Below are positions 13,116 through 33,073 of a DNA stretch of 64,000 nt, piece after piece. How positions within the stretch are numbered: position 1 is the stretch's first letter; each line of letters opens with the position of its first letter. Source of the stretch: Nitrospirota bacterium (GTDB lineage Bacteria > Nitrospirota > UBA9217); the NCBI GenBank assembly GCA_963796285.1, contig CAWCKW010000013.1, positions 480,001 through 544,000 on the forward strand, given 5' to 3'. A program made the translations under genes and the position numbers. The notes below the pieces were generated by a model. It was not told the DNA's origin, searched no databases, and worked only from the letters and a program-made list of their open reading frames with translations.

Positions 13116-13145
13116 ATCAACTCCTCCTTTTAAATACGATTATAT

Positions 13146-13189
13146 ATTCAAGATTCAAAATGTTGAATATTGAATATTCCATCTTGAAT
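13146..13189. repeat. 7-nt periodic inverted repeat spacer
   Basis: attcaag attcaaa / ttgaata ttgaata ttccatc ttgaat. Confidence 0.6.
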
Positions 13190-13194
13190 TTTTC

Positions 13195-13653: not shown

Positions 13654-13692
13654 TGTTGCCTCCTCGCTGTCTAAAACGTAATGATAAAATTA

Positions 13693-13772
13693 ACCACAGA
13701 GCACACAGAGAAATCTTACGATCTCAAAAGCATAAGGCTTTCCCCGGCCGCCGCCTCTGTGCCCTCTGTGGT
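13693..13772. repeat. REP-like inverted element (ACCACAGAG..CACAGAG / CTCTGTG..CTCTGTGGT)
   Basis: Arms read directly from sequence; near-identical arms at 22648-22707. Confidence 0.8.
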
Positions 13773-13781
13773 AATAAATCC

Positions 13782-16454: not shown

Positions 16455-16458
16455 GGGG

Positions 16459-18237
16459 TTACCCTTTTCTGATCGCCTTGAACTTGCACGTCTCGAAGCA
16501 GGCTCCGCACTTGATGCACATGTCCTGGATGATCTTGTGCGGTTTCTTTTTCTCGCCGATGATGGCGCCGGCCGGGCACACGCGCGTGCAGGCGGTGCAG
16601 CCCTTGCAGAACTCCTCGAGAATGCCGTAGGACAAAAGGTCCTTGCAAACGCCGGCGGGACAGCGTTTTTCGAAGATGTGCGCCTCGTACTCGTCCCGGA
16701 AATACTTGATCGTGGAGAGGACGGGATTGGGGGCCGACTGGCCCAGACCGCAGAGCGACGATGTTTTTACGTCGCTGCTGAGCGTTTCGAGCAGATCGAT
16801 ATCCCCTTCTCTTCCCTTGCCTTCGGTGATCCTGGTCAGGATCTCGAGAAGCCTCTTGGTGCCGATCCTGCAGGGAACGCATTTGCCGCAGGACTCGGAC
16901 TTGGTGAACTCCAGGAAGTATTTGGCGACATTCACCATGCAGTCGGTCTCATCAAGCACCACCATGCCGCCCGATCCCATGATCGAGCCGACCTTGCCGA
17001 GAGATTCATAATCGAGCGTGGTGTCGATGATGCTTGAGGGAATGCACCCGCCGGACGGACCCCCGGTCTGGACGGCCTTGAGCTTTTTCCCGCCTTCGAT
17101 GCCTCCGCCGATTTCGTAGATGACCTCTCTGAGCGGGATGCCCATCGGCACCTCGATGAGCCCGGAGTTCAGGATCTTTCCGGTCAGGGCGAAGACCTTG
17201 GTGCCCTTGCTCTTCTCCGTGCCCATGCCCGCGTACCATGCCGCGCCCTTGCGCATGATGTAGGGAACGTTCGCGAGGGTCTCAACGTTGTTGATGATCG
17301 TCGGATAACCCCACAGGCCCTTCTGGACCGGGAAGGGCGGTTTGGCGCGCGGCTGGCCCCGTTTTCCCTCGATCGAGGCGATCAGCGCCGTCTCCTCGCC
17401 GCAGACAAAGGCGCCTGCGCCGAGCTTTACTTTGACATTGAAATCAAAACCCTTGCCGAGGATATTGGTGCCGAGGAACCCGCGCTCCTTTGCCTGCTTG
17501 ATGGCCAGGTGAAGCCGTTCCACGGCAAGGGGGTACTCCGCCCTGATGTAGACATAACCGTACGGCGCCGCGATGGCATAGGCGCCGATGATCATGCCCT
17601 CGATCACCGCATGAGGATTTCCCTCGACAACCGACCGGTCCATGAATGCGCCCGGGTCGCCTTCGTCGGCGTTGCAGATGAGGTACTTGATCGGACCGGG
17701 CGCCTTGATCGCCATGTCCCACTTGACGCCCGTGGGGAAGCCCGCGCCGCCGCGGCCTCTGAGACCCGAGGCTTTGATCACGTCGATCGTCTCCCGGGGG
17801 CTCATGGTCAAGAGGACCTTCTTGGCCGCCTCATACCCGCCGCGGGAGATATAGGAGTCGATGTCCTCCGGGTCTACTTCGCCGCAGTCGGAGAGCACGA
17901 CCTTGACCTGTTTATCATGGAAAGTGTGATAGTCGTCCTTCACGAGCCAGTCGCCCACTGGCGCGCCGCCCGCGATATGCTCATTCACGATCCGCTCCAC
18001 CATGTCCGGCTTGATGTACTCGTACGTAAACTTGGCGCCGTCGATGATAACGTCCACGAGCACGTCGCGCGCGCAGAACCCCCGGCAACCCACCTTATGC
18101 ACCGAACAGTTCTTCTCCACCTTCGCCCGGATCTGGGTAGCCGCTAAGGCCTTTTCGAACGAGGCGATCACGCCCACACCGCCCGCAGCTATGCCGCCCG
18201 TGCCCATACAGACCTTTATCGAGACGTCTTTATTCAT
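16459..18237 (-). CDS. NuoF/HydB-like FMN/NADH-binding subunit with N-terminal 2Fe-2S and C-terminal 2x4Fe-4S
   Basis: GLRGRGGAGFPTG, NADEGDPGAFMD, GAFVCGEET, GGPSGG, ESCGKCVPCR, two CxxCxxCxxxC motifs. Confidence 0.93.
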   Translation of the reverse strand: MNKDVSIKVCMGTGGIAAGGVGVIASFEKALAATQIRAKVEKNCSVHKVGCRGFCARDVLVDVIIDGAKFTYEYIKPDMVERIVNEHIAGGAPVGDWLVKDDYHTFHDKQVKVVLSDCGEVDPEDIDSYISRGGYEAAKKVLLTMSPRETIDVIKASGLRGRGGAGFPTGVKWDMAIKAPGPIKYLICNADEGDPGAFMDRSVVEGNPHAVIEGMIIGAYAIAAPYGYVYIRAEYPLAVERLHLAIKQAKERGFLGTNILGKGFDFNVKVKLGAGAFVCGEETALIASIEGKRGQPRAKPPFPVQKGLWGYPTIINNVETLANVPYIMRKGAAWYAGMGTEKSKGTKVFALTGKILNSGLIEVPMGIPLREVIYEIGGGIEGGKKLKAVQTGGPSGGCIPSSIIDTTLDYESLGKVGSIMGSGGMVVLDETDCMVNVAKYFLEFTKSESCGKCVPCRIGTKRLLEILTRITEGKGREGDIDLLETLSSDVKTSSLCGLGQSAPNPVLSTIKYFRDEYEAHIFEKRCPAGVCKDLLSYGILEEFCKGCTACTRVCPAGAIIGEKKKPHKIIQDMCIKCGACFETCKFKAIRKG

Positions 18238-18327
18238 GATTGCTCCGGAGTGAGACCGGGCCGAGCCCGGCATTTCACACCCAACTCTGAACCCTACACC
18301 TGTGGCTCCGCTTGGTCAGAGTGGTTC

Positions 18328-18810
18328 TTAAATATAATCGATGTACTCGTGCTTTCCCTCTTTGAGGGTCTTCATCTCTTTCATGAGCTTGTCCGGCGTC
18401 ACCTTGCCATGCACGGTCTTGTTCACGATAATGACCGGCGCAATGCTGCAGGCGCCGACACAGTTCACCTTTTCAACCGTGAATTTGAGGTCTTCCGATG
18501 TGTCCTCGCCGTCGGGTATCCCCAGCTCTTTTACGAGACTGTTGATCAGCCGCTCGGACCCCTTGACGTGGCAGGCCGTGCCGCAGCATGCCGTTATGAT
18601 GTTTTTCCCTCTCGGCTTGAGGTGAAACTGCGCGTAGAAGGTAGCTATGCCGTAAAATTTCGCCGGCGGAACATCGAGCCGCTCAGAGATCCAGGTGATC
18701 GCGTCCTCGCGCAGATAGCCGAATTCGCTCTCAAGGTCCTGCAGGATCGAGATCAGGTTGCCTTCGTTCTCATGGTACCGCGTGATGATACGTTCGAGTT
18801 TTTTTTCCAT
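18328..18810 (-). CDS. NuoE/HydC-like 2Fe-2S subunit
   Basis: ATFYAQF, CCGTACHVKG, CVGAC. Confidence 0.93.
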   Translation of the reverse strand: MEKKLERIITRYHENEGNLISILQDLESEFGYLREDAITWISERLDVPPAKFYGIATFYAQFHLKPRGKNIITACCGTACHVKGSERLINSLVKELGIPDGEDTSEDLKFTVEKVNCVGACSIAPVIIVNKTVHGKVTPDKLMKEMKTLKEGKHEYIDYI

Positions 18811-18980
18811 CGTCTTCTTCCTCTTGAGACAAAAAGGGCCGCCTCAATTGTCCCGGCAGCCGCGTAGGTACTCCACGGTCTTGGTCTTGGTGTGTGCTTG
18901 GAGGGCACGCTCCCGGCCTTCGACTGGCGCGCCCCTTATTGCAGCAGGGGCGCGCAAATTTGGACGCTATCCGTTCGTCA

Positions 18981-21182
18981 TCAGAACATCGGGTCCATCG
19001 TAAGCGCTGGATGGCCTTTTGCGGTAAGGAACTCCATCATCTTGTCGGAATCTTCCGCCACGGTCTCGTCGGCGATCTTGTCCAGGAGGTCCGGCACACC
19101 CTCTTCTTCTGCGCGCTTTTTGAACTCTTCGGCAAAGGACTCTTTCAGGTTCTTGGTCATCCAGACGACCCGCTTAAAGCCGCCGTCCGCCGCGAGGAAC
19201 TTTTTGCTCGTGAGGAAGAACCTTCCGATGCCCATAAAGCCGGGTGTCTGGGCCCCGCCACCCACTGTTCCGGCAAGGGTCGAGAACTTCATGCCGATGG
19301 GTGTCATGCCCGTGTAGCCGCGGTTCACCACCATCACGCCGTTTGCCTCCGGCACAATGGCCATGATGCACTCAAAGCAGCCGCATGACGTCATGGGCGC
19401 GTCCATGATGGTGTAGGCATTGAAATATTCGAGCGCCTGGTGCGAGTTCGTGTACACATATTCGTCCACGCCCTTCCAGCGCCCCTTGATCGCATCGACG
19501 GTCTCGCCTTTCAGTACCGGCTGGTTCGCGCCATTCGGATCGATCTCGTATGCGGCCTTGGCATCGAGCCAGTTGTAGGCGCCGCAGAGGCCGAGCCGCT
19601 CGGGAGACACAACGCACACGTGGTTCGGTGCGAAGCTCTGACAAAGGAGGCAGGAATAAAAGGTGTCAACGGACTCGTCGGTCATCGTAGCAAGACGGAT
19701 ATCGCGTTCGAGGTAGGCCTTGCGCGCTTCCTCGTTCTTCGCCTTCACGTCGGCCTCGTCCACAAACAGCGTCACCTGGACCTTGTCCACGATGTTGTTA
19801 AATTTATGTTTGAGCTGGGTCGCGAGGATGTCGCCGAAGTGCTTCAGGACGAACCCGTCCTTAAACGCGTTGATGCTGACCCGGAACCAGTTCTGGTCAC
19901 GCTGGCCCATGTGCCAGATGCCCTGTGCCTCGTTGACGAAGTGATGGATCTTCCGCTCGAGCACGGGTTCGAAGTCTTTCTGCATCTTCCGGCCCCCGAC
20001 CTCGACCATGACGCCGAGCGGCATCTGGCCGCCCTTCTGGTACCTGGCCTCGGGATCGGCCCCGATGATCGTGACCTTGCCGTCCTCGATGGTCTTCAAG
20101 TCCACCATATGGAGCCACTCGAAGGCCGGCGTGCGCTGCCCGCCGAACTCGATGTGCATGTCTTCCTTGCGGATGCGCTCGCCTTCGAAGGCCGGTCCAT
20201 AGGCCACCGGGATCGGCGGTTTCGAGACCGTGATCTTGAGACCGCGCACCTCGATGCACTTCTCAACAAGCTTCTTGGGATCGAGCTCCTTGGCCACTTC
20301 TTCGTAGATCGTGACGCCCGTGGGATGGATCGTCGGGATATCGGTGTTCGCGATGGCCGGGAAGCCCATGTTGATGGCGCCGGCGCCGGTGGTCCAGATT
20401 CGGTCGTTCAAGGGGCCGAGGACCATGGCAAAGGCGAACACCTTGTCCTTGGAGTACTTGAGTATCCGCTTGAAATCGCCGCCCTTCATGCCGCCGAAGG
20501 TGATGCCCGCGCGCGCCGCCCAATGCAGGGCATAAATGGCATGCTCCACCTCGGGGCCGAGAGGCACCAGGCGCGTATCCCAGCCGAGCTGCACGCCCTT
20601 TCGGAGAAGCTGCTTGGTCATGCTCTCTCCGTTCACGTTGCCGCACAGGAACGTGAGGATGTTCTTCTGCTGAAGGTCCCTGGCGATCTCGAAGGCCTGG
20701 TCATCGCTGTCCGCTGCGCCGATGATGCAAACATAACCCGGCATCGAGCCGTCCACCAGCTGCACACCCAGGTTGCGGAGGATCGTGTCGGAGATGAATC
20801 CATGGTAGGTCAGACCGATCGAGTCGTCCTTCACCGGCTCCTGTCCATAGATGTATCGGACCGCCATGATGATCTCCTGTGCAAAGAGGGTCGCCATGCC
20901 GGCGTCGAGCGCCTCTCCCAGATAGGGCTTGAACAGGTGGTCCGCCGGTGCCTCGGTGAGGAGCGGCTTCACATGCCGTTCAAGGGCCGTCTTCATATCT
21001 CCGACGGTATGGACCTCGTAGCCCGTCATGGAGAATATCTGCGGCAGGAAGTATGCGGTATCAGGGAACTCGAACTTGAAGTCCGCGCCCTTCTCGGTGA
21101 TGGCCTTCTCAACAAGCGCCTCGGCCTGCTTCACGTAGTAGTGGGATCCCAGAATGGCCCCGGTGGCAATGACTTTTGACAT
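18981..21182 (-). CDS. acsB: Acetyl-CoA synthase (bacterial-type, with N-terminal domain)
   Basis: FPDTAY, YSCLLCQSFAPNHVC, GLCGA, PMTSCGCFEC. Confidence 0.97.
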   Translation of the reverse strand: MSKVIATGAILGSHYYVKQAEALVEKAITEKGADFKFEFPDTAYFLPQIFSMTGYEVHTVGDMKTALERHVKPLLTEAPADHLFKPYLGEALDAGMATLFAQEIIMAVRYIYGQEPVKDDSIGLTYHGFISDTILRNLGVQLVDGSMPGYVCIIGAADSDDQAFEIARDLQQKNILTFLCGNVNGESMTKQLLRKGVQLGWDTRLVPLGPEVEHAIYALHWAARAGITFGGMKGGDFKRILKYSKDKVFAFAMVLGPLNDRIWTTGAGAINMGFPAIANTDIPTIHPTGVTIYEEVAKELDPKKLVEKCIEVRGLKITVSKPPIPVAYGPAFEGERIRKEDMHIEFGGQRTPAFEWLHMVDLKTIEDGKVTIIGADPEARYQKGGQMPLGVMVEVGGRKMQKDFEPVLERKIHHFVNEAQGIWHMGQRDQNWFRVSINAFKDGFVLKHFGDILATQLKHKFNNIVDKVQVTLFVDEADVKAKNEEARKAYLERDIRLATMTDESVDTFYSCLLCQSFAPNHVCVVSPERLGLCGAYNWLDAKAAYEIDPNGANQPVLKGETVDAIKGRWKGVDEYVYTNSHQALEYFNAYTIMDAPMTSCGCFECIMAIVPEANGVMVVNRGYTGMTPIGMKFSTLAGTVGGGAQTPGFMGIGRFFLTSKKFLAADGGFKRVVWMTKNLKESFAEEFKKRAEEEGVPDLLDKIADETVAEDSDKMMEFLTAKGHPALTMDPMF

Positions 21183-21203
21183 GGATTACTCCTTTTACAG
21201 TTA

Positions 21204-21277
21204 CAGAATCCAGAAGCCAGGATCCAGAAGCCAGAATTAAACCTCCTGACTACTGACTCCTATCTCCTGTCTCCTGA
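21204..21277. repeat. 7-nt periodic inverted repeat spacer (acsC/acsB)
   Basis: cagaatc cagaagc caggatc cagaagc cagaatt / ctcctga ctactga ctcctat ctcctgt ctcctga. Confidence 0.8.
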
Positions 21278-21283
21278 GTTTAT

Positions 21284-22624
21284 TTACGCTCTCGCCTTCA
21301 GAAAGGTCGGGAGCTGGTTCGCTTCCCGGGGGCCCACGGTGATCTTCCAGCCCGGCAGCTTCTCTTCCAGCGCACCGGAGAGCACGGCCACGTAACCGGG
21401 GATGATAAGCTCCTTGTGGCTGATGCTCTTTTCCACACCGCTCTCGGAAACGAACTGGGCGATCTTGCTTGCCGTGAATTTGCCTGCTGCCCAGGCCGTG
21501 AGCACGGACAGTCCTTCATTGTCCATGACCGCGAGCCATGACGGCACCTTGCTGTTCTCCACCTCGCCGCGCACGATAAAATACGAAAGCGAGAAGTTGG
21601 TGGTGATCATGAGCGGCGAATTCTCTTTTGCGTCGCCGACCTTGTAGATATTCTGCGCGACCTGCATCGGCACCTGAGGATCGGTGTAGATGTTCTGGCG
21701 CAGCGACAGCAGCGCGAGCATCTTCCATTTTTCAACGTTGTTCAGAATGATGATGGAGGCATACTTCATTGTCCCGATGGCGGCGGCGATGCTCTCGCTT
21801 ACCGAATCGTCACGGGTCGCGAAGGTAATGACCGGATAGCCGAGGGGCTTGAAGTTCTTCTTGATCGCGGCACGCCGGATGATGGTGAAGTGCTCGATCA
21901 TGTCCTTTGCCTTGCGCGCGCCGGAGTCGAGGACCAGATCGTCAACGCCGAGCGCCTTCACCTTCTCGGACAGGGCGGTCAGAGCGTCCAGCCCGTCCGC
22001 GGCAACCGCGAGGGAGGCCTTCTTTTCTTTTGCGATCTTGGCCATGGCTTCGGCGTTCTCGGCGGTCGCGGCGTAGATGAGCGGCTTCTTGTCAGCGCAG
22101 TGCGCAATGCCCGCTTCGATGGTCGCGGGCGTCTTGCTCACGAGGATCAGCGGCACGCCCGGCGCTCCGTCAACAACCTGCTTCACGACCGAGGCGAACT
22201 TAGCCGCGTCGCCGCCCTCGTCGGTCACGGCGATCGCGTCAACCCTGAGCTTCTGGCCGACCCGGTCGATCTCAGAATGCTTTACTGCCTCGATCTTCTT
22301 TGCCGCGGCGTCGCCGGCCTCGGAGGCCTTGATCGCGACCGCGAAGATATTGGGGTTGAAGAATTTTTTCTCGTGGCGGAACATGCAGATCTCGCCGCCC
22401 ACCTTCACGGCCTTGTCGCCCGTACCGAGCGTGATGTCGCGGATCGGCGGCGCTGCCGACTCGCCCAGGATCTTCTTCGCGTCATCGGACGCGTCAGGGC
22501 AGGCATCGAGGCTCGCCTGCTTTGCGGCAAGCTTCATGGCAAAGGCGAGGCAGGTTGGATGGCCGCACTTCTTACAGTTTGTCTTCGGTAGATGCTTGAA
22601 TATTTCAATACCGGATAGTGCCAT
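21284..22624 (-). CDS. acsC: Corrinoid iron-sulfur protein large subunit
   Basis: LPKTNCKKCGHPTCLAFA, YTDPQVP, TTNFSLSY, GPREA. Confidence 0.97.
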   Translation of the reverse strand: MALSGIEIFKHLPKTNCKKCGHPTCLAFAMKLAAKQASLDACPDASDDAKKILGESAAPPIRDITLGTGDKAVKVGGEICMFRHEKKFFNPNIFAVAIKASEAGDAAAKKIEAVKHSEIDRVGQKLRVDAIAVTDEGGDAAKFASVVKQVVDGAPGVPLILVSKTPATIEAGIAHCADKKPLIYAATAENAEAMAKIAKEKKASLAVAADGLDALTALSEKVKALGVDDLVLDSGARKAKDMIEHFTIIRRAAIKKNFKPLGYPVITFATRDDSVSESIAAAIGTMKYASIIILNNVEKWKMLALLSLRQNIYTDPQVPMQVAQNIYKVGDAKENSPLMITTNFSLSYFIVRGEVENSKVPSWLAVMDNEGLSVLTAWAAGKFTASKIAQFVSESGVEKSISHKELIIPGYVAVLSGALEEKLPGWKITVGPREANQLPTFLKARA

Positions 22625-22647
22625 GGGAAAACTCCTTTCAAGGCTTA

Positions 22648-22707
22648 ACCACAGAGAGCACAGAGGAATCTCAACAGCATGAATATTTTCTCTGTGACCT
22701 CTGTGGT
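22648..22707. repeat. REP-like inverted element (acsD/acsC)
   Basis: accacagagagcacagag ... ctctgtgacctctgtggt. Confidence 0.8.
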
Positions 22708-22720
22708 GAAATTTGTTTGA

Positions 22721-23659
22721 CTACATCAACTCTGTTATGAATTCCTTGGCCTTTGCCGCTGCGCCGGGATGGCGCATGATCAGCGTATCCGCGCCCGCCG
22801 TGATCATGGCTGATGCGGTCATGGCCTCCCAGGCGAGGGCGCGGTCTTCCAGGCCGCCCCATTCCGGCATCTCGCTTTCCGGTGCCATGGTTTCCTTGAC
22901 CTTCCAGACGTTCGCGCCGATGTCGCAGAGGATCGGGGTCTGCATCATGGGATCGTTCTGCAGGAGCGCTGCAAGACGGATGCGCTCCATCACGCTGTAG
23001 GTATATTCAAGGCCGTACCCCAGTGCCGAGGACATGGGGTCCATGATGATCTTCTCTTTGTCGAATCCCATCTGGGAAAGCAGGATATTGAGCTGTTTGG
23101 CGAGGTTCACGTCCAGCTGGCTCATGGCAATGAGCTTATGCTCGTTCGCCATTGCAGCCGCCGCAACTGTCTTGTAGTTCTCCTCCACGGCCTTGCCGAT
23201 CGCGCAGTTCTTCCCGCGCGTGGCAGCTGCCGCTGCCTGGAGCACCTGGGTGTCTTTCTCTACCGCGCCGCTGCCGAGGATGATGAGCGGGATGTCGATC
23301 GCAGCCGCGACCTCGGCCGCGACTTTGGCCGCCTCTTCAGGGCTCTTGTTCTGCTGGTCCGGGTGCGTGCCCATAAGCCGGAGCGCCACCATATCGGCGC
23401 CGCTCTGCTGGCAGAACTTTGCCCAGGCCACGGGACTCGACGCTGCTCCGCCGATCGCTTTCTTCAGGGACTCGGGCCAGTCATCGGGAGCGATATCCAT
23501 GATCTCCAGCGCGACGGCCGGCCTGTTCGGGAACGTTCCCTCGAACCCAAGGAAGGGCAGGGCGCTTGCCCCGCCGATGGTCACCGCTTTTGCGCCGGTA
23601 CCGATCTGTACGTTGTAGATCTTGCCGTTGTAGGTCTCTTTTGGTATTACGAGTGCCAT
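22721..23659 (-). CDS. acsD: Corrinoid iron-sulfur protein small subunit
   Basis: LDVNLAKQLN, LGYGLEYTYSVMERIR, MRHP. Confidence 0.96.
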   Translation of the reverse strand: MALVIPKETYNGKIYNVQIGTGAKAVTIGGASALPFLGFEGTFPNRPAVALEIMDIAPDDWPESLKKAIGGAASSPVAWAKFCQQSGADMVALRLMGTHPDQQNKSPEEAAKVAAEVAAAIDIPLIILGSGAVEKDTQVLQAAAAATRGKNCAIGKAVEENYKTVAAAAMANEHKLIAMSQLDVNLAKQLNILLSQMGFDKEKIIMDPMSSALGYGLEYTYSVMERIRLAALLQNDPMMQTPILCDIGANVWKVKETMAPESEMPEWGGLEDRALAWEAMTASAMITAGADTLIMRHPGAAAKAKEFITELM

Positions 23660-23698
23660 AACAACCTCCTGATTAATCTGTCCAAATCTATAAAGTCG

Positions 23699-23790
23699 GG
23701 GGTCTAAAGAATGGTCATTATAAAATGACGGGGTCTAAATGTCAAAGGTTTGTTCATGACCATTTAGATGCCCTTCAGACCCGTTGAACG
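23699..23790. repeat. Imperfect direct/inverted repeat spacer (acsE/acsD)
   Basis: gggtctaaa twice, opposed by atttagat...cttcagaccc. Confidence 0.5.
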
Positions 23791-23791
23791 T

Positions 23792-24580
23792 CTACATGTC
23801 TAAATATGAATGGGCATACATCTTCTTGCCCATGATCATCTCGACGGTCTTCACCGTGTCCATCATGTCCTTGTCAAGCGGGTCAATGATGGCGGCCGAA
23901 AGTCCTTCGTAGATGAGCATGGTGAGAAAACTCCGGTTGATGATCGGACGCACATGCTTCGGCGCGCCGTTCGAGATGTTCGAAAGCCCGACCACGGTCT
24001 GCATCGGAGGATCGTTCAACTGCTGGAACATCTTGACGGCCCTGATCGCCTGAAGCCCCTGGTCCTGCATGGTGCAGAGCTGGAGGATGAGCGGGTCTAA
24101 GAAGAGGTGCTCCATGGGCACGTCGTGCTCCATTGCGCGGGCCATGATCTCGGCCGCGATGCCGCAGCGGTCCTCGGCATCCGCCGGGATGCTGCCTTTG
24201 CCCAGGGTAAGCGCGATGATCTTCGCCTTGTACTTGCCGGCAAGTTCCATCATCGGGAACCGCTCCGGTTCATTGGACGTGGAGTTGATGATCGGCACAC
24301 CCCACGCGTTGTTGTGAGCCTTGAGCCCTGCTTCCATGGCCTGGATATTCGTCGTATCGAGACAGAGCGGCTTGTGAACCACTTCCTGCAAAACCTTCAC
24401 CGCCCAATCCATGAGCTTGGGACCGTTCTCCTCGGCCGGACCGATGGAAATGTCGATAAAATCCGCACCTGCCTTGGCCTGCGCCACGGCAAGCTCCTGG
24501 AGCGGCTTCGGGTCGAACTTCGTAAGGGCCTCGCGCACCTTCTTTGCAATAACGCTGATCTTTTCTCCGATTATAATCAT
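23792..24580 (-). CDS. acsE: Methyl-THF:corrinoid Fe-S protein methyltransferase
   Basis: IIIGEKI, LCLDTTN, INST, GLSNISNG. Confidence 0.94.
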   Translation of the reverse strand: MIIIGEKISVIAKKVREALTKFDPKPLQELAVAQAKAGADFIDISIGPAEENGPKLMDWAVKVLQEVVHKPLCLDTTNIQAMEAGLKAHNNAWGVPIINSTSNEPERFPMMELAGKYKAKIIALTLGKGSIPADAEDRCGIAAEIMARAMEHDVPMEHLFLDPLILQLCTMQDQGLQAIRAVKMFQQLNDPPMQTVVGLSNISNGAPKHVRPIINRSFLTMLIYEGLSAAIIDPLDKDMMDTVKTVEMIMGKKMYAHSYLDM

Positions 24581-24717
24581 GGGCCGAAACTTCTCCTTTC
24601 AAACTGGATCGAACCTTTTTAGTAACCTGCAGATAAACGCGCTGAACAACTACAAATCTATAAATCTTGCCAAGGGTGAACACGGTTTGAGAAACGTATG
24701 ATGCTCCGCACTCCGCA

Positions 24718-25605
24718 CTACTCAACCAGTTTCTGCAGCTCCTCGGCCATATCCCGGTTGATGCTTCCTTTTTCCCTTGCGACCGAGATGGTATGCCGCG
24801 CAAGTTCTTTATAGAGACCGAGAAGCTCAGGCGTTTTTTTCTGCATTGCCTCGAGATGCCCCTGGATCGTCTCAACATCACCGCGAGCAATGGGTCCGGT
24901 CAATGCATCCGCGGTCCCGAGGGTCTCTATATTATGAAGTGTGCCCCTGATGAGCGGGAGCAGGGCCTGAAGGGTTTCCTGTCTTTCCGCACCCAGCGCC
25001 TGATAGAATTTCAGTCCATAATCGACGAGCGCTACAAAATAGTTTGAAACCGCTATTGCTCCGGCGTGATACAGCGCGGCGGAGTCCTTGTCCGGGCTCC
25101 ATTTCGACATCACCAGCTCGATGCCTCCGAGCGCTTTGACCAGGTCCCTGGCGGCTTCCAGGCCCTCCGGGTCCGCCTCTGTACGAAAATACGATCCCGG
25201 GAGATTTTTAATTCCCTGTGCAGGACTGGGAACCGACTGAAGCGGATGGATCACCGCCCGATACGATCCCGACGATCGCGCCCCGGCAAGGATATCGAGC
25301 GACTGCCCACCGAACATATGCACGACGAGCGAACCTGCCTTAAGCCCGCCTTCTGCTGCAATTTTGTCGCAGACGTTCTTGATCGCCCCGTCCGGCGTGG
25401 TGATGAAAACAATGTCTGCCGTTGATGCCGCCTTCACCACATCGGTCGTCGGTTCTCCCGAGCCGATGAAGTCAGCGGCCTTTTCAGCCGATGCCATTGA
25501 GCGTGCCGCAACGGCGGTCACGGTATACCCCGCCTTCCTCAACAGGCAACCAACGGAACTGCCGACGCGACCTGCGCCTATAATGGCGACCGTTTTAGGG
25601 GTCAT
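24718..25605 (-). CDS. Rossmann-like/DUF2520 oxidoreductase (PanG-type ketopantoate reductase candidate)
   Basis: IIGAGRVG, HPLQS, YHAGA...SNY, LTGPIARGD. Confidence 0.85.
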   Translation of the reverse strand: MTPKTVAIIGAGRVGSSVGCLLRKAGYTVTAVAARSMASAEKAADFIGSGEPTTDVVKAASTADIVFITTPDGAIKNVCDKIAAEGGLKAGSLVVHMFGGQSLDILAGARSSGSYRAVIHPLQSVPSPAQGIKNLPGSYFRTEADPEGLEAARDLVKALGGIELVMSKWSPDKDSAALYHAGAIAVSNYFVALVDYGLKFYQALGAERQETLQALLPLIRGTLHNIETLGTADALTGPIARGDVETIQGHLEAMQKKTPELLGLYKELARHTISVAREKGSINRDMAEELQKLVE

Positions 25606-25608
25606 AGT

Positions 25609-26379
25609 CTACGGGATCAGTTTGTCAAGAACCGAATAAAAACTGGCAAGGGCCCTTGATTCCGGCGGAAGCTGAATCAGCGGTTTGCCGTTCAGATCGT
25701 ATTCAAAGATCAGCTCATCGGCTGGAACAAATCCTGCGAACTCGACGCTCTGCTGCTCGATCGCGTTCAGGAGCGATTTGTCCTCGCTCGTCCCGTTCTG
25801 TACCCGGTTCACGATCAAGACCGAGCGTTTGATGTTCAATTTCAGCTCTTTTACCAACTCGCCGATCCGGCCTGCGGTCATGATGCCGCGAACCGAGGAA
25901 TCGCTGATAATCATGAGCAGGTCCGTGTCCTGCGTCGTGCGTCGCGACAGATGTTCGAGGCCTGCCTCGTTGTCCATGACGGTGAAGGGATACGTGTCGG
26001 CCAGCTTGTCCATGTACTTGCGGATGATGTTGTTCGCCGCGCAGTAGCAGCCGGAACCTTCGGGCCTTCCCATCACGAGCAGGTCGAAGCCTTTTGCCTC
26101 TATCAATGCCTGCTGGATCTGGTAGTCGAAGAGCTGCTCCATGCTCATGCCGCCCGGACGGGGCGCCGTGGACTTGATCGCTTCGAGAGAGGTTTCGCGC
26201 AGTTTCCCGACGGTGGCGTGGACCTTCACGCCGAGCACATCGTTCAGATTCGCATTCGCGTCTGCATCAACGGCCAATATCGCGCCGCGCCTTTTTTCTG
26301 TCAAATATCGTATGGTCAGACCGCAGAGGCTGGTCTTGCCTGTGCCGCCCTTGCCTGCAACCGCTATGGTAAAACCCAT
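25609..26379 (-). CDS. cooC: CooC/AcsF nickel-insertion ATPase
   Basis: AGKGGTGKT, DADAN, GCYC, DNEAGLEHLSR. Confidence 0.93.
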   Translation of the reverse strand: MGFTIAVAGKGGTGKTSLCGLTIRYLTEKRRGAILAVDADANANLNDVLGVKVHATVGKLRETSLEAIKSTAPRPGGMSMEQLFDYQIQQALIEAKGFDLLVMGRPEGSGCYCAANNIIRKYMDKLADTYPFTVMDNEAGLEHLSRRTTQDTDLLMIISDSSVRGIMTAGRIGELVKELKLNIKRSVLIVNRVQNGTSEDKSLLNAIEQQSVEFAGFVPADELIFEYDLNGKPLIQLPPESRALASFYSVLDKLIP

Positions 26380-26395
26380 GGGACCTCGAACAACT

Positions 26396-26461
26396 GGGTC
26401 AAGGGTCATGGGACAAGGGTCAAAAGAATTTACCTGACCCATGACCCCTGCCCCTTGCCCC
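26396..26461. repeat. 7-nt periodic inverted repeat spacer (thyX/cooC)
   Basis: gggtcaa gggtcat gggacaa gggtcaa / tgaccca tgacccc tgcccct tgcccc. Confidence 0.85.
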
Positions 26462-26462
26462 G

Positions 26463-27194
26463 CTATTTCTTCATTACTCCGAACTTCTTCCTGACCTCTT
26501 CGATCTTGCCGCAGGTCATCTTGCCCTCGGGGCACGCGGCGTACAGACAACCGGGGCCTGATTTCCCGAAGATCGTCGGCGCGGCCTTTTTCACGTGGGC
26601 CAGCATGCGGTCGGCCATTTCCCGGATCTCCCACTGCGCCCGGTTGCAGCACCGCACGCGAAAGAAATGGAGAAGCTCCCGCGCGTTCATGGTGACCACT
26701 ATTTTTGTCTCGGCCGCGTTCGGCAGCAGATACCGCGCGTCCTGCTGGCCGACCTCACCCTTGTATCCGAGCTCCTCGAGCCGCTTGAGCACCTTCGTGT
26801 AGTTCTCCTGCGCCTCTGCCATGCACTTCTCGAACTCCCGGGAGATCGCGGCGTCCTGTTTGATGCTCGGAGGAATAATATAATCGAAATGCTCTTCCTT
26901 CACATAGCGCTGGCTCTGCTGCGAGTACGACGCCACGCGGTGACGGACAAGCTGATGCGAGCAGGCCCGGGAGATGCCTTCGATCCCGAAGGTGAACGAA
27001 ACATGCTCGATGGGAGAAAGGTGCCCGATGGTCGCCAGTTTCTCCACAAAGGCCGCCTGGTCCTTGGCCTCGATCTTCTCCTTGAGCTCCTCAACACCCG
27101 CAGCACTGTAGCAGAGCTTCGCGGCCATGGCCACGACTTCTTCGGGTTCCGGCGTATGCCGGAGAAGAACGACGTTCAATGATGCTTCTGGCAT
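26463..27194 (-). CDS. thyX: FAD-dependent thymidylate synthase
   Basis: HLSPIEH, RHRVASYSQQSQRY, DARYLLP, MNARELLHF, RAQWEIR. Confidence 0.96.
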   Translation of the reverse strand: MPEASLNVVLLRHTPEPEEVVAMAAKLCYSAAGVEELKEKIEAKDQAAFVEKLATIGHLSPIEHVSFTFGIEGISRACSHQLVRHRVASYSQQSQRYVKEEHFDYIIPPSIKQDAAISREFEKCMAEAQENYTKVLKRLEELGYKGEVGQQDARYLLPNAAETKIVVTMNARELLHFFRVRCCNRAQWEIREMADRMLAHVKKAAPTIFGKSGPGCLYAACPEGKMTCGKIEEVRKKFGVMKK

Positions 27195-27302: not shown

Positions 27303-27422
27303 GAAAAAATAAGGAGACCCCTGTGAATTTTTTTAATTAACCTATAAATTTGATTGATAAAATTAACCGGCGCTGCCCAAAAATCGGTCAGATTGTTACG
27401 AATATACCTGTGTTTGATAGGA

Positions 27423-28223
27423 TTATTTAAAGCTGTGTTCTTCGGAAGGGAATTTTCCGTTCTCAACATCCTGCTTATACTCTTTTACCGCCTTGAGAGC
27501 CTGATCCTTAAGGTTTACGTACTTCTTGACGAACTTGGGTGTAAACCTGTCGAACAACCCCAGCACATCATGGAGAACGAGTACCTGACCATCGCAATCC
27601 GGTCCGGCACCGATCCCGATGGTCGGGATATGGAGCATCGTCTGGATCTCTTTTGCCAGGGAAACAGGCATGGCCTCAAGCACCACGGAGAAGGCGCCTG
27701 CGTCCTGGACCGACCGCGCGTCAGCAAGGATCTTCTCACGGGTGGCCTCGTCCTTGCCCTGTACCTTGAATCCGCCGAGGGTATGCATATACTGCGGAGT
27801 GAGCCCGATATGGGCCATGACGGGAATACCGGCATCGACGATCGCCCGGATGGCCTCTGCCATCTGGCTGCCGCCTTCAAGCTTCACTGCCTCGGCGCCG
27901 GCTTCTTTCAGGAACCGCCCGGCGTTGCGCACTGCGTCAGCCTTGTCTGTCTGATAGGACAGGAACGGCATGTCGCCCACGACCATGGCAGACACTGCCC
28001 CGCGCGATACCATTTTCGTGTGGTAGATCATCTCGTCCATGGTGACCGGCAACGTGCTCGATACGCCCTGCACCACCATGCCGAGGGAATCCCCGACGAG
28101 GATCATGTCGATCCCGGCCTGGTCCACGATCTGGGCAGTGGGATAATCGTAGGCCGTGAGCATGGTGATCTTCCTGCCTTCGGCCTTTTTCTTATAGATA
28201 TCGAGGATGGTTGTCTTCGGCAT
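27423..28223 (-). CDS. panB: 3-methyl-2-oxobutanoate hydroxymethyltransferase
   Basis: [33 protein letters not shown]; start set at MPKTT. Confidence 0.97.
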
Positions 28224-28230
28224 AATCTTA

Positions 28231-28330
28231 TTTCGGATTGCGGAATGCGGATTGCGGAATAAACCTGTAAACCGTAAACTCCTCATAATGTCCGTAGAAT
28301 CCTCAATTTCCAATCCGCTATTCCGCATCC
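28231..28330. repeat. 7-nt periodic inverted repeat spacer (metF/panB)
   Basis: ttcggat tgcggaa tgcggat tgcggaa / ttccaat ccgctat tccgcat. Confidence 0.75.
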
Positions 28331-29302
28331 TTACACCTGCGGCCTTGGATACAATCCCGCTGCCTTCACGATCCCTTCGATGGCGCTCTCCCATTCAATG
28401 GCCTGGATATGCACGCCCCTTACCCCCGGCGTCTCCAGCAGCCTGGTGGATGAGCTCGATCGTGATCTTGATGCCTTCCTGCTCCTGAAGCTCCTTCATC
28501 TTCTTCTTATCTTCACCGGCGGCGGCCTTTGCCTTGTTCATCCTGTCGATCAGCTCTTTCGGCACGGACACGCCGGCAACGGAGGAGTCCATGTACTTCA
28601 GCATCATTGCGCTCTTCGGCACGATGATGCCGGCGAGGATCGCGGTCTTTTCATGGAGGCCCATGTTCCGGATCTTTGCCATCTGCTCGCGGAAAGACCC
28701 GATATCATAAATACCCTGGGTCTGGATGAAATCGGCGCCGGCATTCACTTTCTTCATGAGATTGATCGGCCTGAAATCGATGGGATCGGCCATGGGTGTC
28801 CAGGACGCGCCGATAAAGAACTTGGGCGGCACTTCGATCGGGTCGCCGCCGTCCTGCTTGCCCTCGTCGCGCATTTTCTTCATGATGCCGACGAGCTGGC
28901 AGGTATCGACATCATACACATTCTTTGCCCCGGGATGGCCCTTGAGCCTTCCCGCTGCGCTGAATTTCTGATGGTCACCGGCAAGGCAAAGACAGTTCTT
29001 AAGCCCAGCGCCGCGGCGCCGAGAAGGTCGGCCTGCATGGCAATGCGGTTACGGTCGCGGCAGGTCATCTGCATGACCGGTTCCAGGCCCTGCTGCAATG
29101 CGATGGCCGCAGCCGCGATGCTCGAGATGCGGACGACCGCGGTCTGGCAATCCGTGATGTTCGCCGCATCGCAGAAGCCCTTGAGCATCTGCGCTTTCTT
29201 GATGACCTCATGGGGATCGGCGCTCATCGGAGGGCCGAGCTCTGCCGTGACCGCGGGCTTGCCGCTGGCGATGACTTTTTCGAGTGTGCTTCCGCTCTTC
29301 AT
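28331..29302 (-). CDS. metF: Methylenetetrahydrofolate reductase; two frameshifts (near 29005 and 28442)
   Basis: [19 protein letters not shown]; reconstructs to [14 protein letters not shown]...GADFIQTQ...[13 protein letters not shown]...RPQV*. Confidence 0.9.
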
Positions 29303-29340
29303 TATCTAAACCTCCAAAATGGTAACGTCAAAATCATTTT

Positions 29341-29416
29341 TACCGCAGAGTCGCGGAGGACGCAGAAGAACTACTTGAATCATCTTCCTCTGTGTCTCTG
29401 TGTACTCCGCGGTAAA
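29341..29416. repeat. REP-like 9-nt-period inverted element (metV/metF)
   Basis: accgcagagtcgcggaggacgcagaag ... ctctgtgtctctgtgtactccgcggtaa. Confidence 0.75.
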
Positions 29417-29425
29417 AAGGTTATA

Positions 29426-30127
29426 TTACTTCCCGGCCTTCGCCTCTTCCTTCTCCTCGTATTCCCGGATATGCTCCAGCGATATGCGCCGCGGTCCGCC
29501 GTCGCGGGATGTTGACCAGTTGCGCGGCGGCAGGACCTCGGAGAGTTTCTCGAGCGTGCCGAGCTTCTTCATCCGCTCGACGATGAGGTACCAGGCGCAG
29601 TCCACGTCCTTGCTGATCTCGCACTTGCCCTTGTTCGTGCCGCCGCAGGGGCCGTTCATGAGCGTCTTGGCGCAGCGCGCAATGGGGCAGATTCCGCCGG
29701 TCATGTGCACGATGCAGTTCCCGCATCCCGCGCAGAGTTCCTTGAAATCGCCCGGCGCTTCCACGGCGCCGTAGAACGAGGTGTTGATGCCCGGATAGAC
29801 CGGGACGGTGCCGGTCCGGTCGGACAGGAAGTTCACCCCCACGCCGCAGGCCGTGGAGAGCACGAGGTCATACTTCTTCACCTCGTCGATCACGGGCTCG
29901 AAATACTCCGGCTCGCAATGGCGCATGACGCCCATGTGGTTCACCACCATGGATTTACCTTCCTGCGATGCCTTCATTTTGATGAGGGACGCAATGGTCT
30001 CGGCCTCTTTTTCGCCGCCAGCATGGCAGATCGCCACACAGGTATTGCAGCCGAACACGAGGACCTTTTTGAAGTCCTTTACCATGTTCCATATTTCGTC
30101 GATTGGTTTTTGTGATCCTACGATCAT
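29426..30127 (-). CDS. metV: MetV, Zn/Fe-S partner subunit of MTHFR
   Basis: GCNTCVAIC, ACGVG, CAGCGNC...GICPIARCAKTLMNGPCGG...C...CAW. Confidence 0.9.
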   Translation of the reverse strand: MIVGSQKPIDEIWNMVKDFKKVLVFGCNTCVAICHAGGEKEAETIASLIKMKASQEGKSMVVNHMGVMRHCEPEYFEPVIDEVKKYDLVLSTACGVGVNFLSDRTGTVPVYPGINTSFYGAVEAPGDFKELCAGCGNCIVHMTGGICPIARCAKTLMNGPCGGTNKGKCEISKDVDCAWYLIVERMKKLGTLEKLSEVLPPRNWSTSRDGGPRRISLEHIREYEEKEEAKAGK

Positions 30128-30168
30128 AGTCAATTACTCCTTTATATCGTACTCATTGGCACAAGCAG

Positions 30169-32275
30169 CTATTTGCCGGCTCGCAGACCTATCTTCTTGA
30201 CCCGCTCGGAAAAATCAGCGCATACCGCTGCATAGGGATTGCCTCCATCGGTCGATGTTGCTGAAAGGATCTCCACTCGGCCGGGCTCGATCTTGAGCAT
30301 GCCGAGCAGGTCCTGAACCCGCTTCACCCTTGCGTTCACACGCGGGGCGATGTCCTTATACTTGCAATTCCCGTCGCCGCAGCGCACCACAGCCACGCCG
30401 TCAGCGCCGGCCTCAAAGGCCTTCAGCATATCGAGAATATCGATCCGGCTGGTGCAATGCACAGGGATACTCTTCACGTTCTTCGGAAGATCGAGGCCGA
30501 GAATGCCTGCGTGGTTCGCACACGTAAAGGCTACGATCACCGGCTCCTGCCTGTTCGGGTCAATCTTGCCGATAACCGACGGACAGCGTGTTCCTGTATC
30601 TCGCGCACGTCATAGCTCACCATGCTGATGGCCTCGGCAGGACATTCGGGAGCGCAGAGACCGCAGGCCTGACAGTACTCGGGCCGGATCTCGGAAACCG
30701 AAGTAACCACGGGAGCATCGTACGGGCAGATGCGCTTGCACGTGAGGCAGGCCATGCACTTCTTCTGGTCCACGACTGCTCCACCGCCGCAGCCGCGGCA
30801 CCTGCCTGCTTCTTCAAGCGCCTCTGCCTCGGTAAAGCCCTCTTCGAAATGCTCCATGGTCTTGACGCGAACCTCGGGAGCGAGATGCCGGACCTTCATG
30901 CGTGGTTGCTTGCTGATCTTCTCAACAACTTCTGACGGCATCTCGGCGATCTTTTCTTTTTCCTGCACAGGAAGTTTGCCTTCGATCGCCTCGCCCTGGA
31001 GAAAGAGATGCATGGCAATGGCCGAGCGATGTCCGTTCGCGACAGCGGCAATAGCCGAGCCCGGGCCTGTCACCACTTCGCCGGCAACGAACACGTTCTT
31101 TGCGCTGCTCATCTGGGTCGCGGGGTTCCATTCAACGCGGCCGCGTTCGTCGACCTTCACGCTGCTGTCCTTCAGGAACGAGAGGTTCGACATCTGGCCG
31201 ATGGTGATAATGATCGTGTCCGCTTCGAGCAGGGTGGTCACCTTGTTGTCAAAGGTCGGGGCAAAGCGCTTGTTCGCGTCGAACACGGACAGGACCTTCG
31301 TCACTTCAAGTCCTTTTACCTTGTCGCCTTCACGCTTGACCGCCTTGGGCCCCCAGCGATAATTGATCTTGATCGCCTCTTCAACCGCCTCGTCCACTTC
31401 CCATTTCCATGCCGGTATCTCCTGCTCGTTCTCGAGACAGACCATTTCGACGTTCTGAACCCCGAGCCTGCGGGCAGAGCGGGCAACATCCATGGCAACG
31501 TTTCCGCCGCCGATGACCAGCACTTTGTCTGCCCAGCTCGGGCTTCCGGTTGAAGGCAACATCCTCGAGGAAGGGGATTGCGAGCAGCACGCCGGGGCCT
31601 TCAACACCCGGAATGTTCAATGACCGGCTAAGGGAAAGGCCGATGGCGATCAGCACCGCATCATGTTTTTTCGTCAGGTCATCGAGCTTGGCGTCTCTGC
31701 CGACCTCGAAGTTCGTTTTTACCTCAATGCCCTTTGATACGACATCGTCGATGTCTTCTTTCAGTACTTCTCGCGGTAAGCGATACGGAGGGATCGCAGT
31801 GGCGAGCATGCCGCCGAGCACCGGATGGCGCTCATAGAGAGTGACGCTGTAGCCGAAATCAGCAAGGTCCCTGGCAGCGGTCAGGCCGGAGGGCCCGGAA
31901 CCGATGATGCCGATCGCTCTTGCCTTTCGTCTTCTGGGCAAGCTTACGCTTGGCGCGGCGGTAGTCTTTGGACTTCTCGATGGCGAAGCGCTTCAGATGC
32001 CGGACCGCCAGCGGTTCGTCAACGCCGCAGCGCCTGCACGACTGTTCGCAGGGATGGTGGCAGATCATGGAGCAGACCGACGCGATGGGATTCACCGACG
32101 TGATGACCTCGAAGGCCTCGGTATACTTTCCCTGGGCGATCAGGCCGACATAGGCCTGCACATCCGTATGCGCCGGGCATGCCGCGCGGCACGGCGAGTA
32201 GGGTCTCGTTTCCTTGATATCAGCGCCGTACGGCCGGTACTCGGTCGGGATGCATGTTGTTTCCGTTGCCATCAT
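30169..32275 (-). CDS. GltD/NfnB-like Fe-S flavoprotein with 2x[4Fe-4S] ferredoxin and MvhD/FlpD-like domain; reconstructed across about four single-base insertions
   Basis: Four overlapping ORFs: PCRAACP..CSMICHHPCEQSC; IGSGPSG; VIGGGNVAMD; CMACLTCKRICP/CQACGLCAPECP; IVAFTC..CTSRID..GADGV..C..NC. Frames join after removing bases near 31916, 31530, 30597 and 30583. Confidence 0.8.
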
Positions 32276-32299
32276 TCACTCCTGCCATGAAATATATTT

Positions 32300-32399
32300 A
32301 CCACGGAGGCGCGGAGACGCGGAGGAAAAACTCTGGATTCCCGCATTCGAGGGAATGACGGTTTTCATTCCGAAATCCGCAATCCGAATTCCGCAATTG
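32300..32399. repeat. Composite spacer: 9-nt REP arm, ATTCCC-N8-GGGAAT palindrome and 7-nt repeats
   Basis: ccacggaggcgcggagacgcggag; ggATTCCCgcattcgaGGGAATgac; ttccgaa atccgca atccgaa ttccgca. Confidence 0.75.
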
Positions 32400-32963
32400 C
32401 TACTCTTTCTTCGTCAACAGTTCAAGCATCTCCATGCGCGTGGACTCCTTGGTGCGGAAGCTGCCGCGCACCGCCGACGTCACTACCCGGGATCCCGGCT
32501 TCTTCACGCCGCGCATGCTCATGCACAAATGCTCTGCGTCGATGACCACCATCGCGCCCTTGGGTTTGAGGTGTTCGACGATCAGATCGATGAACTGGGC
32601 CGTGAGCCGCTCCTGCACCTGCGGCCGTTTTGCAAACACCTCAAGCGCTTTTGCCAGCGAGCTTATCCCCACGATCTTCCCGGCGCCGGGGATGTACGCG
32701 ATGTGCGCCTTGCCGAAGAACGGCAACAAGTGGTGCTCACACACCGAGTAGAACGGGATGTCGCGGATCATCACCATTTCATCGTGGCTCTCGCCTGCCA
32801 TGGGGATCAGCAGCTTTTCCGTGTCCATGGAGATGCCGGAAAAGATCTCCCCGAACATCTCAGCCATGCGCGCGGGCGTGTCTTTCATCCCCGGCCGCTC
32901 GGGGTCTTCGCCGATGCCTTCGATGATGAGGCGAACGCCTTTTTCTATTTTTTTAGTATCCAT
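32400..32963 (-). CDS. folE: GTP cyclohydrolase I
   Basis: [33 protein letters not shown]. Confidence 0.96.
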
Positions 32964-33073
32964 AAGGGGGTACAGCCAGGCACGAAATCCCAATCTCTCA
33001 AATAAATTTCAAATCACGCTATCTCAACTCGTGAGATCGTATTCCCGGGGTCTTATACTCGATTTGACGCCTG

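Follow-up and report, generated by a model that had tools for sequence, protein, structure and literature searches.

A candidate single-chain electron-input partner of MetVF in the Wood-Ljungdahl gene cluster of a Nitrospirota bacterium

Four types of methylene-tetrahydrofolate (methylene-THF) reductase have been distinguished: MetF alone, MetVF, RnfC2-MetVF and MetVF with HdrCBA-MvhD (PMC8760232; papers are cited here by PMC number, for individual passages). How much ATP the Wood-Ljungdahl pathway yields depends on the physiological electron donor of the MetVF-type enzymes, which is still debated (PMC8760232, PMC9430772). Here we describe a gene found directly upstream of metV-metF in a 64,000-nucleotide stretch of a Nitrospirota bacterium (GenBank assembly GCA_963796285.1, contig CAWCKW010000013.1, positions 480,001 to 544,000), which we refer to as the window. 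The gene encodes a GltD/NfnB-like module, a ferredoxin domain and an MvhD/FlpD domain in a single protein, hereafter the fusion. We think it probable that the fusion is a soluble electron-input partner of MetVF, about 700 amino acids (aa) long, with linear input from NAD(P)H (probably NADH), and that it represents a stripped type IV partner.

The type IV enzyme is known from Moorella thermoacetica and Sporomusa ovata. In Moorella, HdrA is the NADH-oxidising site (PMC8760232) and carries the same GltD-type Fe-S/flavin adenine dinucleotide (FAD)/NAD(P)H domain as an insertion (PMC9430772 section 5). In S. ovata pull-downs, MvhD recovered MetF, and MetV recovered HdrA (PMC9430772 section 8). Besides this domain of Moorella HdrA, the fusion locus shares with type IV the metV-metF core, the MvhD module and the HdrA-type C-terminal ferredoxin domain. 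It differs in that these partner modules form one chain of about 700 aa, with MvhD fused to the rest, and that the thioredoxin-reductase-like HdrA flavin domain, HdrB (CCG) and HdrC are missing.

The type III enzyme of Acetobacterium woodii likewise has an extra Fe-S flavoprotein beside metVF as the pyridine-nucleotide site, and is proposed to work in a linear, non-bifurcating mode (PMC8760232), which we propose for the fusion as well. The two proteins do not share a fold: RnfC2 belongs to the RnfC/Complex1_51K flavin mononucleotide (FMN) proteins and has a MetV-like N-terminus, whereas the fusion combines a GltD/NfnB-like FAD module with MvhD, and the window has no RnfC-like FMN subunit beside metVF. 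A looser parallel is offered by SfrB of Geobacter SfrAB and FdhB of Moorella (K15022), GltD-like subunits that bind NADPH and wire up a catalytic partner (PMC7483475). That partner is a molybdopterin enzyme, not MetVF, and the comparison with the fusion is by description, not by domain make-up. SfrB and FdhB may also share ferredoxin or MvhD parts.

Four reading frames that form one gene

The minus strand of the window at 30169-32275 holds four open reading frames (ORFs) in three frames: 31859-32275 (138 aa), 31381-31941 (186 aa), 30537-31607 (356 aa) and 30169-30540 (123 aa). We aligned this region with an intact 699-aa ortholog from a related genome (G006, L013:5246-7345), which carries all four domains on one chain. 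We found a single gene for an Fe-S flavoprotein of about 700 aa, disrupted by four 1-base insertions. In the nucleotide alignment the extra bases fall at about 31915-31917, at 31531, at 30596-30597 and at 30583, and the four fragments tile residues 1-699 of the ortholog end to end. Pfam identified Fer4_20 in the first fragment (3.4e-16), profile positions 5-122 of Pyr_redox_2 in the second (1.3e-10), positions 142-291 of the same profile (2.4e-18) together with Fer4 (6.5e-9) in the third, and FlpD in the fourth (PF02662; 3.4e-26, 92 bits, cut-off 22.3). The four fragments are one gene with these domains and the Cys motifs described below. The original prediction, made from the letters of the window, had already rejoined the fragments into a protein of about 700 aa with the same three modules and had placed the insertions between 30583 and 31916. 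The tiling, the insertion sites and the Pfam results for both the fragments and the intact ortholog agree with it, and the motifs it had read, CMACLTCKRICP, CANH and VCLE, are all in the window translations.

We then considered which residues are conserved in an alignment of 30 family members (32-79% identity; numbering is that of the G006 ortholog). C32, C71, C75, E76 and C79 are invariant, C28 and C67 are present in at least 90% of rows, and both dinucleotide glycine motifs are invariant or nearly so. The Fer4_20/Pyr_redox_2 module has eight conserved Cys (C28, C32, C67, C71, C75, C79, C491 and C494), which suffices for two GltD-type [4Fe-4S] clusters. Eight more in the ferredoxin domain (C505, C508, C511, C515, C533, C536, C539 and C543), all invariant or nearly so, correspond to two ferredoxin-type [4Fe-4S] clusters. 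In the MvhD domain, C583, C605, C630 and C635 are all kept in the Nitrospirota orthologs. The tally of conserved Cys is consistent with four [4Fe-4S] clusters and one four-Cys site. At the MvhD site the canonical CxxC is replaced by CxxH or CxxR; the four Cys of the Nitrospirota orthologs are candidate ligands of a [2Fe-2S] cluster. The original prediction had drawn attention to CANH in place of CxxC. The motif reads as stated but means little: two close orthologs (G010, G014) have Arg for the His, the position is variable across the 30 members, and four Cys remain. We dropped it as a functional clue.

Among solved structures, residues 26-505 come closest to the NfnB-like domains of NfnA (9n5u, 9bov) and StnC (8oh5), with E-values of 1e-91 to 1e-85, and next to NfnB/NfnL (4ylf, 5jca). 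For residues 498-555 the match is to the C-terminal ferredoxin domain of HdrA (5odc_A residues 577-639), and for residues 585-695 to MvhD/VhuD chains; NCBIfam assigns residues 496-696 as a whole to the HdrA2 C-terminus. The GltD-like domain is the only flavin domain in the fusion. Pfam found no Molybdopterin or NuoG domain in the intact ortholog, and the NfnA and StnC alignments end at about residue 505. A search of the ESM Atlas returned generic clusters only.

The order of parts sets the fusion apart from each of these relatives. It shares with NfnA of NfnABC (9BOV, 9N5U) and StnC of StnABC (8OH5) an RCxxC segment on the C-terminal, not the N-terminal, side of the FAD domain. It differs from them in having CLE in place of YRR and MvhD in place of a C-terminal NuoG/formate-dehydrogenase-like domain, and no BfuB/C-type partner genes adjoin it. 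With NfnB/NfnL of NfnSL (4YLF, 5JCA) and with GltD it has in common Fer4_20 plus Pyr_redox_2, the cluster-motif Cys and the C-E pair. Here the differences are the first Cys pair after the FAD domain, the additional ferredoxin and MvhD domains, the missing NADPH Arg pair and the missing NfnA/S or GltB partner (no NfnA-like gene is adjacent in the ORF list; the genome was not searched for one). Its MvhD domain scores 87-92 bits for FlpD. In the comparison with MvhD/VhuD chains (7BKB_F, 5ODC_D, 9SFI_K) three Cys align, the first of them with a Cys of 9sfi_K, and the differences are the position of the domain at a flavoprotein C-terminus and a His, variable in the family, at the second position of C-x-x-C.

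We also considered a single origin of the compact fusion. A quick, preliminary IQ-TREE tree of GltD modules (55 rows, midpoint root) put the compact fusions at no fewer than three positions amid HdrA-GltD proteins and other architectures, and we draw no claim on origin from it.

Linkage to metVF and the slot of the type IV partner

If the fusion serves MetVF, it should be found beside metVF in other genomes. In a search of 31 related genomes, intact frames of about 690-745 aa were present in 11, the intact protein of the relatives measuring 690-718 aa. All 10 family loci, from nine genomes, have the order FolE-fusion-MetV-MetF, and PanB is next in the eight loci that reach so far. In three loci, small PIN/nucleotidyltransferase-like and other short genes lie between the fusion and metV (L017 4511-5675, L021 5988-9040, L020 295-4626).

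We extended the survey to 201 evenly drawn Nitrospirota genomes, counting as orthologs proteins of at least 66% identity. An ortholog was present in 33 genomes, and in 29 of these metV follows on the same contig within 3.1 kb downstream; in 27 genomes (28 loci) the ortholog is a single gene. The remaining four comprise two genomes, both without a metV match, whose ortholog lies at the end of a contig (G016, G017) and two of one genus in which it is unlinked (G082, G140). A more distant relative of 650 aa, 36% identical, adjoins metV in G204.

Similar loci occur in other phyla. These results come from the best 80 of 600 stretches of a species-genome scan, and are examples, not a census. Among the matches listed outside Nitrospirota, nine single-chain relatives reach into the MvhD domain; two are at contig ends, and the other seven, all that could be evaluated, adjoin metV. 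The seven come from Phycisphaerales, Dehalococcoidia, Coriobacteriia, Ca. Brocadia, a Brocadia-like Planctomycetes metagenome-assembled genome (MAG), Chloroflexota and a deltaproteobacterial MAG, and so from Planctomycetota, Chloroflexota and Actinomycetota in addition to the last. Seven of seven outside-phylum proteins scanned (L028 and L030 left out) have the four-domain Pfam architecture, and at three of the seven linked loci the fusion stop and the metV start overlap by 4 nt. The linkage of the fusion to metV-metF is strong, and the relatives are single genes. The original prediction, which separate genes in homologs or homologs unlinked to metVF would have refuted, withstood both checks, and its reading of the fusion is supported. 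Automatic names of the relatives are generic ('FAD-dependent oxidoreductase', 'formate dehydrogenase beta subunit', 'hydrogenase iron-sulfur subunit'), as are those of ten distant clusters.

What stands in the place of the fusion elsewhere is informative. In a genome labelled as the same genus (G008) and another of the same family (G018) we found FolE-HdrC-HdrB(CCG)-HdrA(1080 aa)-MvhD-MetV-MetF-PanB, which is the type IV arrangement. The fusion replaces HdrCBA-MvhD in the same folE-panB slot. The window itself has no HdrB, none of the seven CCG matches of the genome falling there, and no further HdrA-like match when fragment C is the query; the only other FlpD domain of the genome is outside it. 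Its single Complex1_51K protein, about 11 kb from metF, is NuoF-like and not RnfC2-like. The window is thus free of the HdrA FAD domain, HdrB/C and RnfC2, as originally predicted.

The HdrA of a further genome (G021) is 1476 aa long with an inserted GltD-like module. The fusion aligns to its residues 160-640 (36% identity) and to its ferredoxin domain at 1408-1458 (41%), and the roughly 790 residues between about 640 and 1408 have no counterpart in the fusion. Because the same slot holds HdrCBA-MvhD in sister species, the fusion looks, by descent, like a type IV partner stripped of the thioredoxin-reductase-like flavin core of HdrA and of HdrBC. It keeps the parts of the Moorella type that are needed to pass electrons from pyridine nucleotide to MetVF, namely the NAD(P)H module, the C-terminal ferredoxin domain and MvhD. 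The parts that it lacks, the thioredoxin-reductase-like flavin domains and HdrBC, are those thought to do bifurcating or membrane-linked chemistry.

The original prediction had proposed a new type of methylene-THF reductase. What stands of this is that a full-text literature search, with subscription papers and supplementary files outside its scope, returned no description of the architecture as a MetVF partner, and that the available text of genome papers on Desulfobacterium (HdrL), Chloroflexi, Actinobacteria, ANME and syntrophic acetate oxidisers reports Hdr-type partners only. Since Moorella HdrA already has the GltD NAD(P)H domain, the compact fusion is not wholly new and would best be seen as a trimmed variant of the known type IV partner rather than a new kind.

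Other GltD-bearing neighbours of metVF came to light as well. HdrA-GltD proteins of 1401-1476 aa occur with a separate MvhD. In Dehalococcoidales MAGs (L089 4779-7901, L097 6372-9443), a NuoE+NuoF+GltD fusion of 1023-1040 aa lies directly upstream of metV-metF; we found no description of it as a MetVF partner in the literature searched. Five genomes with an Hdr-type cluster have a second MetV paralog (45-47% identity) with one or two in-frame TGA codons, which may be a selenoprotein.

Predicted electron path and competing explanations

Complex formation, the electron path and the donor are predicted from sequence and gene order. The FAD of the GltD/NfnB-like module would take up a hydride from NAD(P)H, most likely NADH, and single electrons would leave through the two GltD-type [4Fe-4S] clusters. 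They would then pass the two [4Fe-4S] clusters of the HdrA-C-terminus-like ferredoxin domain to a [2Fe-2S] cluster of the MvhD domain, and from there move through the Fe-S clusters of MetV to the flavin of MetF, where methylene-THF would be reduced. During acetyl-CoA oxidation the same path would run in reverse. The working mode would be linear and non-bifurcating, as in type III RnfC2-MetVF. In homologs of the NfnA/StnC type, the FAD is the point of hydride entry and releases electrons singly into a chain of clusters (PMC11829005).

The MetVF core that would receive these electrons is present: PF02219 identifies MetF, and PF12225 a MetV with conserved Cys directly upstream of metF. The window MetF is not of the NAD(P)H type, scoring 57 bits on the NAD(P)H-type model TIGR00676 against a cut-off of 294.

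An acidic residue at the end of the second strand of a Rossmann fold is the usual mark of NADH preference. At that position the fusion has CLE, whereas YRR is found in five of the five best PDB relatives, a contrast that the original prediction had already drawn. Because CLE stands where the NADPH-using relatives have YRR, with an Arg pair that holds the 2'-phosphate (PMC8965080), the donor here is likely to be NADH, this motif being the sole pointer to it. C/M-L-E is found in the window and in six of the seven metVF-linked fusions of other phyla.

Several observations weigh against this picture. YRR is retained in one metVF-linked lineage (L033), and the donor may therefore vary between lineages. 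In the genus of G082 and G140 (L110 6038-8134, L112 629-2722; also L111, L113) the fusion is unlinked while metVF retains an HdrC-HdrB-HdrA-MvhD partner. The unlinked copies lie among argS, racemase, RNase PH, ftsH and folP genes or beside a rubrerythrin gene, and their MvhD part reaches only 48-50% identity. Three of the four MvhD Cys are missing from the Phycisphaerales protein, and one from each of the two Brocadia-like proteins. Because some metVF-linked fusions lack MvhD Cys, an electron relay via MvhD cannot be general across them, and in some lineages the domain may only dock. Finally, we saw no partner-specific divergence of MetV. MetV identity is 73-74% in Hdr-type loci versus 83-94% in fusion-type loci, with MetF lower in the Hdr-type loci too; the MetV/MetF divergence ratio is 1.8-2.0, the same as in the fusion-type genomes G010 and G014. 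We dropped co-evolution of MetV with its partner for this reason.

Some of these points would fit a free-standing NAD(P)H:ferredoxin oxidoreductase that does not dock, in which case soluble ferredoxin would reduce MetVF as in type II and adjacency would reflect co-regulation only. In vitro, purified type II MetVF enzymes work with reduced ferredoxin (PMC8760232); G082 and G140 have the ortholog away from metVF; and some metVF-linked fusions miss MvhD Cys. We nevertheless regard this as rather unlikely. The fusion occupies the exact HdrCBA-MvhD slot, overlaps metV by 4 nt at three loci and retains the MvhD domain, a known inter-subunit connector in Mvh-Hdr (PMC9012536), and the reduction of ferredoxin by NADH is uphill without bifurcation.

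The frame breaks raise the question of whether the operon is functional in this strain at all. Compared with G006, metF lacks one base at about 29000-29008 and has one extra at about 28438-28440, in addition to the four insertions in the fusion gene. We compared the stretch with near-relative contigs from four public runs of four studies, which show the relatives' sequence, not that of the source sample. Every relative run covering a site lacks one base at 30583, 30596, 31531, 31917 and 28438/9, and has an extra C behind 29000. The base at 31917 is omitted at 17 of 22 depth in X1 and 2.3 of 12 in X2, and that at 31531 at 21.4 of 21.4 in X1 and 6.9 of 10.7 in X2. Both bases at 30583 and 30596 are omitted at full depth (X1 18.9/18.9, X2 6.87/6.87, X3 5.11/5.11; X5 has no cover there). 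The ratio of nonsynonymous to synonymous substitution rates (dN/dS) against G006 is 0.05-0.11 for the fragments, each in its own frame, and 0.06-0.17 for eight intact neighbour genes. The genome has one metF. The fhs gene (about 12738 in the window) is also frameshifted, into two frames, as is dsrA outside the window (G000:C13:69167-70310), so that the assembly has indels in further essential genes. The fusion gene is in pieces in three more few-contig assemblies (G001, G004, G180) and whole in G005, G108 and G163. Because the relatives' contigs are without the six indels, dN/dS of the fragments is low, metF is single-copy, and fhs and dsrA are frameshifted too, the breaks are very probably sequencing or assembly errors.

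The alternative is a genuine pseudogene cluster, recently inactivated in this strain. Five of seven frame-switch sites (six of eight indels) lie within 4 kb of about 50 kb in synteny with G006, leaving two frame switches in all the rest, and random error does not account for this clustering. The best public run shares 0.38 of the sampled words of the stretch, and the indels are judged from relatives. We consider decay unlikely even so: apart from the evidence just given, the sole metF sits inside an otherwise intact acs/fhs/fdh cluster. In all four public runs the relatives' contigs have one more base of metF behind 28694 and one fewer at 28701, a compensated pair that would alter two codons in the window. 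The Dehalococcoidia fusion of L030 (4541-6606) is split into ORFs of 582 and 166 aa in two frames, with short metV/metF matches, and may be another frameshifted assembly.

Returning to a functional fusion, its electron path could also be split. In a minimal three-gene bifurcating reductase, the NfnB-type FAD would send one electron via the ferredoxin-MvhD arm to MetVF (exergonic) and the other via the GltD-type clusters to ferredoxin (endergonic). In its favour, NfnB/NfnL, homologs of the module, have a bifurcating FAD (PMC12018979), two distinct sets of Fe-S clusters flank the FAD domain in the sequence, and bifurcation at methylene-THF reduction is a long-standing proposal (PMC8760232, PMC5861303). 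We find this improbable. The nearest relatives, NfnA and StnC, use the same FAD as a plain NADPH entry, the type IV parts thought to bifurcate (the HdrA flavin core and HdrBC) are precisely those lost, and the two exits from the FAD that it calls for are hypothetical.

It is very improbable that the fusion is an NADP-binding beta subunit of formate dehydrogenase (SfrB/FdhB-like), as JGI names of relatives such as 'formate dehydrogenase (NADP+) beta subunit' and a selenocysteine (Sec)-containing FdhA 14 kb off in the window might suggest, since that FdhA already has a NuoF-like neighbour, no FdhA adjoins the fusion in any locus examined, and the conserved neighbour is metV.

The surroundings of the operon and what the fusion would mean

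The features of the locus are collected in the table.

Table. Features of the fusion-metVF locus and its surroundings (window positions unless a genome is given)
Feature	Position	Strand	Basis
Whole fusion gene (GltD/NfnB-like module + 2x[4Fe-4S] + MvhD/FlpD)	30169..32275	-	Four-frame ORFs, Pfam, ortholog tiling
Fragment A, N-terminus with Fer4_20 and Cys of two GltD-type [4Fe-4S] clusters	31916..32275	-	Pfam and family alignment
Frameshift site 1, +1 base	31915..31917	-	Ortholog alignment, relatives' contigs
Fragment B, FAD-binding half of Pyr_redox_2, GIIGSGPSG	31532..31914	-	ORF and Pfam
Frameshift site 2, +1 base	31531..31531	-	Ortholog alignment, relatives' contigs
Fragment C, NAD(P)H-binding half (GGGNVAMD), RCxxC linker and 2x[4Fe-4S] ferredoxin domain	30598..31530	-	ORF, Pfam, HdrA matches
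CMACLTCKRICP motif within the ferredoxin domain of fragment C	30723-30758	-	Translation
C-L-E codons, end of second strand of dinucleotide fold; Y-R-R in NADPH-binding relatives	31431..31439	-	Alignment to PDB chains
Frameshift sites 3 and 4, +1 base each, spaced by about 14 nt	30583..30597	-	Ortholog alignment, relatives' contigs
Fragment D, linker and MvhD/FlpD domain	30169..30582	-	Pfam, alignments
CANH within fragment D	30511-30522	-	Translation
metV, zinc/Fe-S subunit of MetVF	29426..30127	-	PF12225 2.6e-35, invariant Cys; starts 41 nt past the fusion stop codon
metF, single copy, three frames	28331..29302	-	PF02219 in two pieces
folE, conserved upstream flank	32400..32993	-	Family loci
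panB, conserved downstream flank	27423..28232	-	Family loci
Wood-Ljungdahl cluster: fhs, Sec-fdhA, nuoF-like, acsB, acsC, acsD, acsE, cooC-like	11351..26652	-	Window gene survey
TGA-bearing MetV paralogs	G013:C15:1557662-1558339; G018:C7:192247-192918; G116:C32; G127:C45; G183:C73		

The operon is flanked by folate-related genes: thyX (26463-27194), panB, folE and a 5-formyl-THF cyclo-ligase gene (33074-33631). In the Wood-Ljungdahl cluster, the frame of fdhA (13782-16454, minus strand) is open but for one in-frame TGA at 15414-15416. With selenocysteine at that codon the translation reads CARLUHSST, as is typical of Sec formate dehydrogenases. The NuoF-like flavoprotein (604 aa, 16459-18273) adjoins fdhA. 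The spacer between metV and metF (29303-29428) holds a short dispersed repeat, with seven partial copies elsewhere in the genome (G000; 71-88% identity over 32-92 nt), and contigs of three public runs have 23 nt in place of about 132 nt there. Rfam gave no matches in 27000-35000 at E up to 0.1. We counted 12 terminator-like sites, versus 7.9 +/- 2.3 in shuffles; promoter- and terminator-like sites are consensus matches only.

A candidate partner of about 700 residues in one chain, which takes over the HdrCBA-MvhD slot, recurs beside metVF in non-acetogen Wood-Ljungdahl organisms, such as Nitrospirota with dsrA and a Ca. Brocadia MAG. Together with MetV and MetF it would make a small, expressible three-protein system for the question of whether NADH alone suffices or ferredoxin is co-reduced. 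If the fusion did bifurcate, the oxidation of NADH at this step would restore the pool of reduced ferredoxin in sulfate-reducing Nitrospirota, anammox Planctomycetota and Chloroflexota. The assignment would also correct the generic annotations of a widespread family, which bears on metabolic models of uncultured groups.

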